Positions 13,491 to 17,372 of a stretch of 64,000 nucleotides of DNA are shown here, piece after piece; position 1 is the first letter of the stretch; each line of letters starts with the position of its first letter. A model generated the notes under the pieces. That model saw nothing but the letters and a program-made list of their open reading frames with translations, did no database searches and was not told the origin of the DNA. The translations under genes were made by a program, and so were the position numbers. The stretch is from the NCBI GenBank assembly GCA_949296855.1, contig CASFRN010000164.1, positions 8,127 to 72,126 on the forward strand, written 5' to 3'. Source of the DNA: an uncultured Bacteroides sp. GTDB taxonomy: Bacteria > Bacteroidota > Bacteroidia > Bacteroidales > Bacteroidaceae.

Positions 13491-16400
13491 ATGATGAAGC
13501 GGTATTTTTTATGTTTGGTTATCATCTTGCTTGCCGGTGTCGGACAAATGATGGCAAAAGACGGACTTCCTTTCTTTGTCAACTATGTACCTGAGGTTTA
13601 CCATGCGCATAACCGTAATTTTGATATCGTGAGCGATGATAACGGACGGGTGTATGTAGCCAATTTCGAAGGTGTTTTGTATTATGACGGAACGGAGTGG
13701 CATACGATTCATGCTCCGGGCATCTTCCGGATTACCAAATTATTTAAGGACAGCAACGGGCGGATTTGGGTTGGAGGATATAATTTGTTCGGATATTTGG
13801 TTGCCGGCGGGAACGGAGAACTGGAGTTGCGGCTGGTGTTTTCTAAAAACAATAAAGGCTTTTTGGGCGAAGTGACGGATGTCGAAGAGAAGGAGGGGAA
13901 GATTTGTGTCACCACTTCGCTGGGAGATGCGGATATTCAGGATGACTCGATGGATGGTTTTATCGTAAGCCAGGACAAATCTGATGATGTCCGGTATTAT
14001 AAAGAGGCAGTGGTAAATAAGCGGCTGGCGTTGTCTGATGGTTCTGTTCTGTTGGCTACGGCTGGAAGCGGTTTTGTGATGTTGGATAAAGAGGGGAATG
14101 AAGTGTATGCGTTAACGGAGCAAAATGGTTTGTGTAATAATAACGTAAATAGTCTTTATGCCGATTCGTTAGGTTATGTTTGGGGAGCTACCGATAATGG
14201 AATCTTTTTGGTGAATATACGTACGGCATACACTTATTTCCGTTCGAATGAAGGCTTGTCGGGTGAAGTGCAATCTATTTGCCATACTGCTCATGGGCTT
14301 TATGTAGGCACTTTGCAAGGCCTGTTCTATAAAGAAGGGGATGTTTTCGAAGCGGTTGGAGCGATTCAGTATGCTTGTTGGCAACTGCTGCAAGATGCGT
14401 CCGGGAATGTTTATGCTTCTACGGCTGGCGGGCTGTATATAGTACGTGGCAGGCAAGTGCAACAAATAACAGATAGCCACACGCTTTCTGCATACGTTTG
14501 CGGAGACGGGGTGTATTATACAGGTGAAACGGACGGCGTTTATCAAATCCGGCATGGTGAAAGGAGACAGATGAATATCATCGAGAAAGCGACCTGTTTT
14601 TATATGGATGCTGATAATACTTTATGGGTAAGGAATATCTACGGGCAGGTGTTCCGTTGCGAAGGGGATTATTCCGGTTATGTTATTCTTGCTCCGGAGA
14701 ATGCAAAAGGAGAGAAGGACAGTTTTAACAATACGCTTTTCGTTCAAGACGGAATCATTTTTGTGTTAAGCCATGTAGGATTGTTCAAATGGAATCATGC
14801 AGAAGGTAAATTGGTAGAGGTTGCCGACCGTTCTTCGTGGGCATCGGATATCCGATACCCTCGGTTTGTGTATCCAGAGATGAACCAACGCGTATGGGGA
14901 ACTGATAATGAGGGGAAGAGCCTGCATATATACACCCATAAGCAAGGAGTGGAGGAAACGAATGCTCTTTTGCGCCCGGTACATGATTTGACGATAGGGA
15001 CAATGGAGGTAAAAGGTGACGATGTGTGGCTTGGAGGAAACTTTGGCTTGATTCATTGGGATGCCGCAATGAAGGAGCCGGATTATGCGGAGGAAGCGCA
15101 TGTATATATCCGGCGTATTGTTATTGACAATGATTCGGTTGTATGGGGCGGATTTGATAAAGACGGCAGGTTAGAGGCTTTGCTTCCTTTTAAAGGGTTG
15201 ACATTCGAAAGTGGTATACGCGATATTAGAATATCTTTCTCAACCGATTTGTTCTCTGTTCTTGGAGCGACGGAATACCGTTATCGGCTGAATGCGGGTG
15301 ATGAATGGTCAGATTGGAGTACAGAGACTTCAGCGCGTTTTGCCAATCCGCGTTCGGGGCGTTACGTTTTTCAGATTATGGCACGCGACAGGTACGGGCG
15401 GGCGACGGAAGCGTTAAGCTTGCCTCTTACGGTGCGCTATCCTGTTTATATGCGGTGGTATAGTATTCTGTTATATGTTATTGTGCTTTCATTCGGTGTC
15501 TGGCTGCTGGTAAGATGGCGTATGCATCGTCTGTTAAAAGAGAAAATGCGCCTGGAAAATATCGTAGAAGAACGGACTTCGCAATTGCGTCGGCAAAAAG
15601 AAGAGATAGAAGAAAAATCAAAGAAGCTGGAGGTGGCTCTTGATGATTTGAGTAAGGCGCAATACCAGCTTATCCGCCAAGAAAAGATGGCTACGGTAGG
15701 TACGTTGACCAAGGGGCTTGTCGACCGTATCTTGAATCCGATGAATTATGTGAATAATTTCTCGCACATGAGCATTGGGCTGGTAAAAGATATTAAAGAC
15801 AATTTGGACGATGACCAGGAGAATATGACATCGGATATTTACGAAGACTCCATCGATGCGCTTGATATGCTGAATACGAATTTAAAGAAGATAGAAGAAC
15901 ATGGATTGAATACGACGCGCATCCTGAAAGCAATGGAGGAAATGCTGAAAGACCGGGGTGTTAATCTGTCGTTGATTGATATAGCGGCGATATGCCGTAA
16001 AAACATCGAGATGTTGCAATCGTATTATGCTAAAGATATAGCCGAGTGTCATATCAAGATAGAATCGCCGGACAAAGATGCAATAGCTGTAGCCGAAGTA
16101 GACGCGGAGCAGTTCAGTAAGGTTGTGATGAGCATGCTGGCGAATAGCATTTACGCGCTTCGCAAGAAGTCCCTGCAAAGGAAATCTTTTGAACCGATGA
16201 TTCGTTTAAGGGTTTCGACAGATGTTGGAGCCAGCATGGTGAAAGTAGGTGTTTATGATAACGGCGTCGGAATAGAGTCATCTATTATCGATAAGGTGTT
16301 CGATCCGTTCTTTACTACGAAAACCACGGCGGAAGCCGTCGGGGTAGGTATGTATCTTAGCCGGGAAATCATATTAAACCATGGCGGGAATATCACTGTC

Positions 16401-16499
16401 CGTTCGGTGAAAGACGAATATGCCGAATTTGTGATTTCTGTTCCTATCCATCATGCGGGGAATGCGAAAAAAGAAGCAGAAAAGGAACTCGATAATTAA
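13491..16499 (+). CDS. Two-component sensor with periplasmic beta-propeller/Y_Y_Y domains, one TM helix and a kinase core lacking the H-box histidine
   Basis: Signal/TM at the N-terminus, about 640 aa of propeller-like repeats, and a TM helix (YSILLYVIVLSFGVWLLV). The DHp-like segment reads QEKMATVGTLTKGLVDRILNPMNYV, with Asp (codon 15723-15725) where the His is expected. The HATPase_c N, G1 and G2 boxes are present (DNGVGI, GVGMYL). Confidence 0.85.
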   Translation: MMKRYFLCLVIILLAGVGQMMAKDGLPFFVNYVPEVYHAHNRNFDIVSDDNGRVYVANFEGVLYYDGTEWHTIHAPGIFRITKLFKDSNGRIWVGGYNLFGYLVAGGNGELELRLVFSKNNKGFLGEVTDVEEKEGKICVTTSLGDADIQDDSMDGFIVSQDKSDDVRYYKEAVVNKRLALSDGSVLLATAGSGFVMLDKEGNEVYALTEQNGLCNNNVNSLYADSLGYVWGATDNGIFLVNIRTAYTYFRSNEGLSGEVQSICHTAHGLYVGTLQGLFYKEGDVFEAVGAIQYACWQLLQDASGNVYASTAGGLYIVRGRQVQQITDSHTLSAYVCGDGVYYTGETDGVYQIRHGERRQMNIIEKATCFYMDADNTLWVRNIYGQVFRCEGDYSGYVILAPENAKGEKDSFNNTLFVQDGIIFVLSHVGLFKWNHAEGKLVEVADRSSWASDIRYPRFVYPEMNQRVWGTDNEGKSLHIYTHKQGVEETNALLRPVHDLTIGTMEVKGDDVWLGGNFGLIHWDAAMKEPDYAEEAHVYIRRIVIDNDSVVWGGFDKDGRLEALLPFKGLTFESGIRDIRISFSTDLFSVLGATEYRYRLNAGDEWSDWSTETSARFANPRSGRYVFQIMARDRYGRATEALSLPLTVRYPVYMRWYSILLYVIVLSFGVWLLVRWRMHRLLKEKMRLENIVEERTSQLRRQKEEIEEKSKKLEVALDDLSKAQYQLIRQEKMATVGTLTKGLVDRILNPMNYVNNFSHMSIGLVKDIKDNLDDDQENMTSDIYEDSIDALDMLNTNLKKIEEHGLNTTRILKAMEEMLKDRGVNLSLIDIAAICRKNIEMLQSYYAKDIAECHIKIESPDKDAIAVAEVDAEQFSKVVMSMLANSIYALRKKSLQRKSFEPMIRLRVSTDVGASMVKVGVYDNGVGIESSIIDKVFDPFFTTKTTAEAVGVGMYLSREIILNHGGNITVRSVKDEYAEFVISVPIHHAGNAKKEAEKELDN

Positions 16500-16532
16500 A
16501 GGAATAAAAAATAAACTCAAAAATCTCAATAT

Positions 16533-17372
16533 ATGGAAACGATAGAACAATTGAAGCGGCAGGTAGAAAGTTTGCAAGAACAATTAAGGCAACAAGAGAA
16601 GATGGCAACGTTGGGATTGCTTACAGCCGGAATCGTGCATGAGATTCGTAATCCGTTGAATTTTGTAATCAATTTCAGTAAGCTTTCCGGTGACTTGATA
16701 AAAGATTTGGGAGAAGACTTGGAGGCAAATGAAGATAATATAGATAATGATGACATGGATGATATTCGTGACATCATGGAAAATTTGAATGAAAACCTTC
16801 AGAAGATAAAGGAACATGGTGACCGGGCTGTTAGTATTATTCAGAATATTCTGCTGTATTCGCGCGGGAAAGAAGATGAGTTTATCCCGACAGATGTATG
16901 TAAGCTGGTAAAAGAATATGTATGGCTTTCTTATCATGCGATGCGTGCTAACCTGAAGAACTTCAATATCACCATTGAGGAGGATTATGAAGCGGCTCTT
17001 CCTTTGCAGCCGGTAGTGCCTCAAGACTTGAGCCGCGCGGTATTGAATGTGATGAACAACGCTTGTTATGCAGTGTGGGAAAAAGCAGGACAGAATATTC
17101 CCGATTACAAACCGACGGTTTCAATAAAAGTAGTTCGCAAGGGCAAGGAACTGCTTATCTCTATTACGGATAACGGCACAGGGATGAGCGATGAAGTAAA
17201 GCAACGTCTGTTCGAAACATTCTTTACCACGAAACCGACCGGACAAGGCACCGGTTTGGGGATGTATATCACTCGCAATATCATCGAAGAAAAACATCAC
17301 GGGCGGATTGAATTCGATTCTGAGGAAGGCAAGTTTACGGCATTTTCACTTATAATACCCATGAAGGAATGA
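16533..17372 (+). CDS. Soluble histidine kinase (HisKA + HATPase_c) with no sensor domain
   Basis: [25 protein letters not shown] carries the His codon at 16638-16640. Also DNGTGM and GTGLGMY. No TM segment. Confidence 0.9.
   Translation: [279 protein letters not shown]

Follow-up and report, generated by a model that had tools for sequence, protein, structure and literature searches.

We propose that two adjacent genes in an uncultured Bacteroides sp. encode the two halves of a single signal transmitter. Both lie in a 64,000-nucleotide stretch of DNA (GenBank assembly GCA_949296855.1, contig CASFRN010000164.1, positions 8,127 to 72,126 of the forward strand), which we will call the window and whose positions we count from its first nucleotide. 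The first gene encodes a sensor with a histidine-kinase fold whose phospho-acceptor histidine and the acidic residue after it are replaced by aspartate and arginine; we call it the DR (Asp-Arg) sensor. The second encodes a sensor-less soluble histidine kinase (SOLK). The putative recipient of the signal is a phosphatase with a receiver domain (receiver-PP2C), which is encoded upstream. For this explanation as a whole, which blends the wiring of the three proteins with trans-phosphorylation of SOLK by the DR sensor, we would put the probability at roughly 55%. The key features are:

13491-16499, + strand, DR sensor, an open reading frame (ORF) of 1,002 amino acids with the Pfam domains Reg_prop, Y_Y_Y, and HATPase_c
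15723-15728, + strand, acceptor-site codons of the DR sensor, GAC CGT (Asp745-Arg746), where the H-box would have its phospho-acceptor His and catalytic acidic residue
16533-17372, + strand, SOLK, 279 amino acids, with the Pfam domains HisKA and HATPase_c
16638-16643, + strand, H-box codons of SOLK, CAT GAG (His36-Glu37), canonical
4950-6116, + strand, receiver-PP2C phosphatase (SpoIIE-type), 388 amino acids, with the Pfam domains Response_reg (86.8 bits) and SpoIIE (181.3 bits)

Hydrophobic segments and a structure model from AlphaFold2 (computed with 83 homologues; mean pLDDT of 83.7) give the layout of the DR sensor. A signal or transmembrane segment (residues 4-23) is followed by a periplasmic double beta-propeller with a Y_Y_Y domain (24-655), a transmembrane segment (656-677), a signalling helix (678-725), a DHp domain (about 726-822), and a CA domain (about 823-990). 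In the model, the DHp domain is a long hairpin of two helices (712-774 and 781-820), and the CA domain has an alpha/beta fold (827-985). The Pfam scores were 46.2 bits for Reg_prop and 26.9 bits for Y_Y_Y (cut-off 26.6). In Foldseek searches, the periplasmic part matched the sensors of the hybrid two-component systems (HTCS) BT4663, BT3049, and BT4673 (E = 2.6e-29), which it matches in sequence too, and the cytoplasmic part matched the kinase cores of ZraS, HK853, and YycG.

Pfam finds no HisKA domain in the DR sensor. HMMER matched the sensor to a solved kinase, ZraS (9jfj), and the phospho-acceptor His of ZraS aligns to Asp745. The acidic residue at the +1 position of the H-box (Glu or Asp) is replaced as well, by Arg746, which is invariant. 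Because both the acceptor His and the +1 acid are absent, the DR sensor falls outside the canonical HisKA kinases. The ATP boxes are intact (N885 of the N box; D923, G925, and G927 of G1; F940, F941, T943, and K944 of F; and G951 and G953 of G2). They had appeared so in an earlier inspection of this DNA, the sequence-only reading, and we found them all to be invariant in 83 aligned homologues. (The first Gly of the G2 box is an invariant Ala949 in this family.) The protein ends after the CA domain, and Pfam finds no fused Response_reg or HTH domain in it. As it has neither a receiver nor an AraC domain, it is not an HTCS. No NCBIfam model matches the DR sensor, the small kinase, or the receiver-PP2C at its cut-off; the sensor's best curated-family matches are kinases of the AtoS/ZraS type, all below cut-off, and databases name DR sensors "ATP-binding protein" or "sensor histidine kinase." The family has a kinase fold and a replaced acceptor His, and the replacement is kept among orthologues; judged by these sequence features, the DR sensor belongs to the functional class of pseudo-histidine kinases.

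SOLK consists of a short N-terminal helix, a DHp domain that carries His36-Glu37, and a CA domain. Its gene lies 33 bp from the DR sensor gene, on the same (+) strand and in the same reading frame. BLASTP aligned the kinase modules of the two proteins over 269 residues (33% identity, E = 4e-42), and because the alignment is gap-free around the H-box, Asp-Arg falls exactly on His-Glu. The sequence-only reading had set the Asp codon (GAC, 15723-15725) against the His codon (CAT, 16638-16640) and had described a change from His-Glu to Asp-Arg; both the codons and BLASTP agree with it. Past the acceptor, helix alpha-1 is near-identical in the two proteins (I-x-N-P-x-N-[Y/F]-[I/V]-x-N-F-S). In 52 of 53 pairs of a DR protein and a small kinase, both partners have a connector of 42 residues between alpha-1 and alpha-2, so the two DHp domains are geometrically compatible. 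Furthermore, His-Glu is kept in 120 of 120 homologues of SOLK. As in heteromeric kinase pairs of the FasB/FasC or RetS/GacS type, there are two kinase-like proteins, of which one (the sensor) is without His-Glu and the other (SOLK) has everything.

The Asp-Arg site is strongly conserved. We found it in 118 of 120 homologues of the DR sensor (93-38% identity), where the motif reads G-L-[I/V]-D-R-I-L-N-P and the other two sequences are truncated or chimeric; in 70 of 70 DR proteins from genome loci; and in 116 of 120 relatives of the short form that is described below. In an exhaustive HMMER search with the cytoplasmic module, it was present in at least 97 of the 150 top-ranked representatives of clusters at 50% identity, with lengths of 236 to 2,084 amino acids. 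In alignments of 29 and of 83 sequences, Asp745, Arg746, and the nucleotide-binding residues are invariant. The mean identity to the window's sensor is 83% and 80% in the DHp helices, which is the highest of the protein, 52% in the CA domain, and 43% in the periplasmic region. The sequence-only reading had proposed aligning orthologues, since His at this position would have pointed to a strain-specific lesion; the orthologues are without His, and Asp-Arg is invariant. On these alignments, the pattern is far beyond chance, Asp-Arg is fixed and ancient, and the ATP boxes and the DHp helices are under strong constraint.

In a neighbour-joining tree, the 70 Asp-Arg modules from genome loci (70 of 70) form one clade, which implies that the module arose once, long ago, and that domains were shuffled afterwards. 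The input domains that are joined to the DR module include Y_Y_Y, TPR (in a Spirosoma agri protein), HAMP, MFS with HEAT and Y_Y_Y, and bare membrane anchors. In the closest relatives that contain a His, this helix carries His-Glu (...AGIAHEI[Q/K]NPLNFVNNF...). The DR family is large: it is common in Bacteroides, Prevotella, Parabacteroides, and Alistipes from the gut and the rumen, and it reaches environmental Bacteroidota.

A histidine in alpha-2 of the DR sensor was a candidate for a replacement acceptor. His804-Gly805 (15900-15905; motif K-I-E-E-H-G) is invariant in the DR family. A His is also found at this position in 78% of small kinases, and it is invariant in six aligned Y_Y_Y sensors with His-Glu. 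Because His804 is conserved in kinases that have the canonical His, we rejected a replacement acceptor as the main reading of it and consider it to be a structural feature of the subfamily.

We then compared gene neighbourhoods across 79 genome loci from Prevotella and Prevotellaceae rumen metagenome-assembled genomes (MAGs), Bacteroidaceae, Parabacteroides, Tannerellaceae, and Alistipes, with close relatives added from assemblies. Adjacency was counted by alignment for the 67 DR genes that were assessable (three more are at contig ends). A gene for a His-Glu kinase directly follows the DR gene in 59 of these 67 loci; in 7 it does not, and in 1 locus tandem DR genes precede the kinase. The median gap between the two genes is 4 bp, and 16 pairs overlap. 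In the long form, the order is receiver-PP2C, WD40 protein, DR sensor, small His-Glu kinase, TonB-dependent receptor, and sometimes a nonribosomal peptide synthetase (NRPS). The short form, known from Parabacteroides, Tannerellaceae, and Alistipes, begins with a STAS protein and continues with an RsbW-like protein, the DR protein, a small His-Glu kinase, and the receiver-PP2C. The short-form DR protein is membrane-anchored and has 373 amino acids (the Pfam assignments are from one complete Parabacteroides genome). The genes for the STAS and RsbW-like proteins are contiguous with the kinases in Parabacteroides and are also present in two of the distant loci that we describe next (L089 and L090). 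The receiver-PP2C is syntenic in nearly all loci, and it is 60-80% identical in related Bacteroidales loci, which is far above the conservation of the sensor. It directly adjoins the cluster in most relatives, and STAS and RsbW-like genes often accompany it.

Three distant DR sensors are just 25-38% identical to the window's sensor and have the same set of neighbours. Their gene orders are:

L088: nSTAND-WD40, TonB receptor, DR sensor, 291-amino-acid His kinase, receiver-PP2C
L089: GlgX, STAS, RsbW-like, nSTAND-WD40, TonB receptor, 2,084-amino-acid DR sensor, His kinase, receiver-PP2C
L090: WD40, TonB receptor, DR sensor, His kinase, receiver-PP2C, RsbW-like, STAS

These distant sensors have full-length homologues that retain His-Glu, and where such a homologue is encoded next to the orthologous receiver-PP2C, there is no small kinase between them. 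The loci with His-Glu kinases are:

L093: WD40-like protein, His sensor, receiver-PP2C that is 56% identical to the window's
L100: His sensor, directly followed by receiver-PP2C that is 49% identical to the window's
L095: His sensor, directly followed by receiver-PP2C, which is cut by the contig end
L113, L157, and L164: His-Glu kinases with other inputs, each directly followed by receiver-PP2C

The receiver-PP2C is 47-55% identical to the window's in the distant DR loci (L088-L090) and 49-60% identical beside His-Glu kinases in metagenome loci. These loci amount to a natural control, and the counts of each gene order are:

DR protein, then small kinase, then receiver-PP2C: 14 loci
DR protein, then receiver-PP2C directly: 0 loci
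His-Glu kinase, then receiver-PP2C directly: 6 loci (L093, L095, L100, L113, L157, and L164)
His-Glu kinase, then small kinase, then receiver-PP2C: 0 seen

Although the loci are not phylogenetically independent, distant branches agree in this pattern. Because His-Glu kinases adjoin the receiver-PP2C directly, while DR proteins do so only via a small kinase, the wiring is well supported: we think it very likely, from gene order and alignments, that the DR sensor, SOLK, and the receiver-PP2C form one pathway. The sequence-only reading had proposed this wiring, and it is strongly supported by the adjoining pair in 59 of 67 loci, by the conserved receiver-PP2C, and by the absence of an extra kinase where the sensor keeps its His. 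Across Bacteroidota, the DR and small-kinase genes together appear to replace the single normal kinase that feeds the receiver-PP2C. As to how the pair arose, the kinase module of the His-Glu Y_Y_Y sensors is 46-51% identical to small kinases, versus about 37% to DR modules. The simplest history that fits would be a duplication of the transmitter, after which His-Glu was retained in the free copy and gave way to Asp-Arg in the copy attached to the sensor.

Several loci depart from a simple pair. In Parabacteroides bouchesdurhonensis (L055, 9953-14238), two tandem short DR genes are followed by one small kinase and the receiver-PP2C, and in one Prevotella MAG (L044 and L048), one DR sensor has a small kinase and a second does not. 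This suggests that several DR inputs may share a small kinase. A 1,807-amino-acid kinase-like protein from an uncultured bacterium (L067) has Ser-Asp at the His-Glu position of the module alignment, which may be another degenerate H-box or an alignment artefact; it adjoins a 44%-identical receiver-PP2C on the opposite strand. Finally, a single database sequence (P0278; 508 amino acids; a homologue of L052, 9457-10990) joins an RsbW-like kinase and a short DR protein in a single ORF. The corresponding genes of L052 are separated by 1 bp. P0278 could be a true fusion or a sequencing or gene-call artefact.

We propose the following mechanism. The DR sensor and SOLK would be two halves of one transmitter that contact each other via their near-identical DHp helices. 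The DR sensor would be the signal-input subunit, with an HTCS-like periplasmic ligand sensor and an ATP-binding kinase core; with Asp-Arg in place of His-Glu, it is not phosphorylatable on the canonical His. SOLK would supply a phosphorylatable His36, and the sensor's CA domain would phosphorylate this His in trans or else gate its phosphorylation. The phosphoryl group would then pass from His36 to the receiver-PP2C, which we infer to be the phospho-acceptor of the pair. The receiver-PP2C would in turn act on a phosphorylated STAS protein, and the STAS protein would engage the RsbW-like kinase. These final steps are modelled on the logic of RsbU/RsbV/RsbW and RsbK/RsbY (PMC9912610, PMC4574943).

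Trans-phosphorylation by the sensor's CA domain is the mode that we favour because the ATP ligands are invariant, helix alpha-1 is near-identical, and the connector has 42 residues in 52 of 53 pairs. As a specific mode, however, it is a tentative choice, to which we would give somewhat less than even odds, and several observations weigh against it or against the pairing. SOLK has its own complete CA domain, so there is no obvious need for the sensor's. HTCS sensors work as homodimers, and the long conserved signalling helix and the HTCS-type periplasmic domain argue against a simple 1:1 heterodimer of the DHp domains. The strict invariance of both Asp and Arg exceeds what a simple loss of function would require, which suggests an active role for the site that trans-phosphorylation does not explain. 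Seven DR loci are without an adjoining small kinase (L006, L026, L034, L043, L044, L049, and L053), and the receiver-PP2C is nonetheless present in two of these (L034 and L049). There are also two orphans among the distant DR proteins. The locus counts are not phylogenetically independent, and the roughly 59 DR/kinase pairs are phylogenetically clustered.

Some of these observations would be accounted for if the two proteins pushed and pulled on the same target, with SOLK as a constitutive kinase for the receiver-PP2C and a homodimer of the DR protein as a signal-regulated phosphatase, or as a docking scaffold for the phosphorylated receiver, and with no phosphate passing via SOLK. The DR site has lost exactly the two autokinase residues (the His and the +1 acid) and has invariantly kept the Asn at +4 (N749) and the Pro at +5; in mutational work on HisKA kinases by Willett and Kirby in 2012, the +1 residue was reportedly kinase-specific and the +4 residue phosphatase-specific. 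The part of the DHp domain that docks the regulator (alpha-1 below the acceptor and the start of alpha-2, as in HK853-RR468) is near-identical in the DR protein and the small kinase, so both proteins could dock onto one receiver. A homodimer is favoured by the long conserved signalling helix and by the HTCS-like sensor, and in L034 and L049 a DR sensor occurs with the receiver-PP2C in the absence of a small kinase. But this explanation accounts neither for the tight coupling of the DR and small-kinase genes nor for the lack of any second protein in the relatives that keep their His. A bifunctional His kinase would already provide phosphatase activity, and the strict conservation of all the ATP-binding residues is more than a phosphatase role is known to need. 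We consider it unlikely, albeit a serious competitor. The DR protein might instead be a pseudo-substrate, or a heterodimeric regulator in the manner of RetS and GacS, whose helix mimics the substrate or product helix of SOLK, captures the CA or DHp domain of SOLK, and switches SOLK in response to ligand without any catalysis by the sensor. The flanks of the acceptor are almost the same in both proteins, the acceptor has become a negative residue beside an Arg with both invariant, and the DHp geometry is equal. Also, the DR module is found on many inputs (Y_Y_Y, TPR, HAMP, MFS with HEAT, and membrane-only), and the extra (L044/L048) or tandem (L055) DR genes per single kinase look like converging inputs. 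A purely steric regulator would not need invariant ligands for Mg-ATP, however, and we find this explanation quite improbable.

Two further alternatives do away with the partnership. The DR protein could be an autonomous kinase with another acceptor (His804, an acyl phosphate on Asp745, or a Ser/Thr elsewhere, as in GHKL kinases of the RsbW or PDK type), and SOLK would then be independent. This would fit with the invariance of the ATP-binding residues and of His804-Gly805 in the DR family and with the orphan status of some DR proteins. But His804 is equally conserved where the canonical His is present, the conserved adjacency and the natural control speak against independence, and acyl phosphates on DHp helices are, to our knowledge, without precedent; we judge it to be very unlikely. 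That the sensor is a decaying, pseudogene-like relic of a recent lesion beside a functional orphan kinase is hardly credible: the failure of Pfam's HisKA to match would suggest it if one looked at a single genome, but Asp-Arg is fixed in hundreds of sequences from several Bacteroidota families, the proteins are encoded by intact ORFs, and no region is more conserved than the DHp domain. The orthologue alignment refutes this idea. Rather than a dead site, Asp-Arg could be the working element of a new class of "His-free transmitter." As a mimic of phospho-His or of the product, as a pseudo-substrate, or conceivably as a transient carrier of an acyl phosphate, Asp-Arg would interact with the CA domain of a soluble kinase that is used in common or with the PP2C protein's receiver, so that many unrelated sensors of Bacteroidota (Y_Y_Y, TPR, HAMP, MFS-HEAT, and membrane-only) could plug into one kinase and a partner-switching output. 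We regard this as speculative and rather unlikely. If it were true, the output might control metabolism rather than a sigma factor, as GlgX and glycogen genes recur nearby. Overall, a DR sensor that signals through the His of SOLK to the receiver-PP2C is the explanation that we prefer.

In the window, the genes for the components that would act downstream of the receiver-PP2C lie in a lineage-specific insert, in which metabolic genes are interleaved with STAS and RsbW-like genes:

6147-11771, + strand, insert of about 5.7 kb between the genes for the receiver-PP2C and the WD40 protein, with all genes on the + strand
6147-8003, + strand, AGE-like protein (Pfam/NCBIfam)
8000-8317, + strand, first STAS protein (anti-sigma-antagonist type), about 102-105 amino acids; TIGR00377, 63.8 bits, above the cut-off of 53.45
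8296-10455, + strand, GlgX (NCBIfam, 683 bits versus a cut-off of 640.9)
10490-10801, + strand, second STAS protein, an ORF of 103 amino acids; TIGR00377, E = 6.6e-12, below the cut-off; Pfam STAS in relatives
10811-11224, + strand, RsbW/SpoIIAB-like serine kinase (HATPase_c_2), 137 amino acids, 47% identical to a Parabacteroides RsbW-like protein
11208-11771, + strand, DJ-1/PfpI protein (Pfam/NCBIfam)

The first STAS gene was found by tblastn with a STAS protein from Parabacteroides, and it is a Pfam-annotated gene call in close relatives. The RsbW-like protein of Parabacteroides and the counterparts in relatives of the window match HATPase_c_2 in Pfam; the window's protein has weak matches to the RsbW/SpoIIAB models of NCBIfam. 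The sequence-only reading had placed a partner-switching operon upstream of the sensor, and its parts can now be named: the receiver-PP2C (4950-6116), the STAS proteins (8000-8317 and 10490-10801), and the RsbW-like protein (10811-11224). That reading had also held that the receiver on the PP2C protein is the only one in the window and that no DNA-binding response regulator is encoded nearby. Indeed, tblastn with three receivers (the window's own and those of CheY and PhoB) found no second receiver domain in the window, only 4950-5324, and a Pfam scan of 41 ORFs, each with at least 150 amino acids, yielded no DNA-binding response regulator. Nor was a sigma-factor domain found among these 41 ORFs, with a few ORFs of at least 150 amino acids and most smaller ones outside the scan. 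The target of the partner switch could be encoded elsewhere.

The arrangement of the insert (AGE-like, STAS, GlgX, STAS, RsbW-like, DJ-1/PfpI) is kept in the closest relatives (L080 and L084-L086), which are near Bacteroides gallinaceum. The order GlgX, STAS, RsbW-like recurs in the distant locus L089 (1-1291), and a glycogen synthase gene is near the cluster in L088 (15066-16841). The partner switch in the window may control glycogen metabolism, or may control enzymes directly.

The other genes around the pair are:

11855-13483, + strand, WD40 protein with a hydrophobic N-terminal segment, a long charged coiled coil, and a WD40 beta-propeller (Pfam)
17369-19777, + strand, TonB-dependent receptor (Pfam Plug and TonB_dep_Rec_b-barrel), whose start overlaps the stop of SOLK by 4 bp
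19791-26657, + strand, two-module NRPS, 2,288 amino acids, with two each of the Pfam domains Condensation, AMP-binding, and PP-binding
26675-27220, nitroreductase, which follows the NRPS

The WD40 protein is a companion of the Y_Y_Y-type DR sensors and is syntenic in about 50 loci. Because its relatives are called at 514-523 amino acids, the window's protein probably starts at an internal Met. In distant loci, the corresponding proteins (about 1,050-1,070 amino acids) are fusions with an nSTAND NTPase domain.

The sequence-only reading had suggested that the cluster is linked to the TonB-receptor and NRPS genes downstream. The link to the TonB-dependent receptor holds up, as the receptor is syntenic in the Y_Y_Y-type loci, including the distant ones. 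For the NRPS, the case is weaker, since only a subset of the related loci have this gene, which is a variable part of the operon at its downstream side.

Compared to its close relative L080, the window has about 92% DNA identity from about 3494 to about 18608. Identity is lost over the C-terminal 390 or so amino acids of the TonB-dependent receptor and the entire NRPS (18608-26680) and resumes at the nitroreductase and a glyoxalase-like ORF (27269-27691). The NRPS of L080 has one module (1,340 amino acids) and is 50% identical to the window's two-module NRPS. The receptor barrel and the synthetase look like a swapped cassette, by analogy with types of siderophore receptors and synthetases. A scan of 2000-20000 for sigma-70 promoters and terminators was uninformative: the matches were mostly intragenic, and the consensus does not cover Bacteroidota promoters.

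Farther downstream, 28398-38359 encodes DUF3575 and OmpA-like outer-membrane proteins and then an Mfa/FimA-type fimbrial operon (Fimbrillin_C, Mfa2, and DUF4906/FimA-like). A + strand run at 38877-44281 includes a caspase-domain (Peptidase_C14) protein (39533-40669) and a WG_beta_rep protein (42494-44281). Four ORFs of this run have no match in Pfam. The run may be a conflict or defence-type cluster.

Two-component signalling is usually read as one kinase and one regulator, and the DR family, with its fixed non-His acceptor site, departs from this. The DR proteins and their His-keeping homologues are an unusually clean natural control on the use of a helper kinase. They bear on how catalytically altered kinase-like proteins transmit signals and on how several sensors can share one kinase. 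They also expose an uncharacterised partner-switching pathway of Bacteroidota with ties to a TonB-dependent receptor, to a WD40 protein, to genes for glycogen metabolism, and in some cases to an NRPS. We did not find a published description of the DR family in the literature on partner switching in Bacteroidetes, pseudo-histidine kinases, RsbK/RsbY, degenerate H-boxes, or Y_Y_Y proteins with SpoIIE. A preprint (10.64898/2026.02.27.708494) reports a HisKA-less profile (A0A1H9IBY7) whose sole conserved His is in alpha-2; this may be the DR family, although the preprint text gives no taxon or sequence.

Among known systems, the DR sensor resembles DivL of Caulobacter in having a histidine-kinase fold whose acceptor His is replaced, with the replacement conserved in orthologues (PMC4211667, PMC5361649). 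DivL acts by contacts with a true kinase, CckA, and with a response regulator, DivK (PMC4211667, PMC5361649). But DivL has Tyr at the acceptor position and a multi-PAS input, instead of Asp-Arg and Y_Y_Y, and the homology is limited to the general fold. Furthermore, its gene is not beside that of its kinase, and its output is the control of CtrA rather than a receiver-PP2C. ATP binding is dispensable in DivL; in the DR sensor, by contrast, all the ATP ligands are invariant.

In the FasB/FasC/FasA system of group A Streptococcus (PMC12675982), as we propose for the DR system, two adjacent kinase-like genes share the labour of signalling to one response regulator. The authors suggest heterodimer formation and a pseudokinase partner, with trans-phosphorylation (PMC12675982). 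Fas is a mirror image of the DR pair, however: its sensing partner, FasC, keeps its His, and FasC's kinase domain can be dispensed with (PMC12675982). In the DR pair, the sensing partner has lost its His and has a fully conserved ATP site, and the partner with the His is without a sensor. The two systems also belong to different families and phyla, and the output of Fas, a DNA-binding regulator, is of another kind. RetS and GacS of Pseudomonas aeruginosa are hybrid kinases that both keep their His, their genes are not adjacent, and the output is GacA/Rsm and not a PP2C partner switch. What they would have in common with the DR pair, as far as the Fas study describes them (PMC12675982), is that a kinase-like sensor protein controls another kinase by contacts between DHp domains and that several sensors act on one kinase.

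On the output side, the closest likeness that we noted is to RsbK-RsbY-RsbV-RsbW of Bacillus cereus (PMC9912610, PMC4574943), in which a histidine kinase signals to a receiver-PP2C and then to a STAS/RsbW pair. There, a single canonical hybrid kinase with His is used, and the target is sigma-B; no sigma factor gene was found in the window's operon, and its switch genes are interleaved with those for GlgX, the AGE-like protein, and DJ-1. On the input side, the DR sensor shares the sensor fold (a double beta-propeller with Y_Y_Y) of the Bacteroides HTCS proteins BT4663, BT3049, and BT4673 (PDB 4a2l, 3v9f, and 3ott). A single HTCS polypeptide combines a His-bearing HisKA domain with a fused receiver and an AraC DNA-binding domain, all three of which are missing from the DR sensor. 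(For comparison, L082 has a true HTCS with the full set of domains.) In the split kinase CheA3/CheA4 of Rhodobacter sphaeroides, one polypeptide carries the phosphorylatable His and another the catalytic domain that acts on this His. That system uses a P1 domain of the CheA type, and each half is without what the other has, while the small kinase of the DR system is complete and of the HisKA type. Thus, pseudo-kinases, heteromeric kinase pairs, and inputs of the RsbK/RsbY type were already known, and what is new here is a family of Asp-Arg transmitters that works with a helper kinase.

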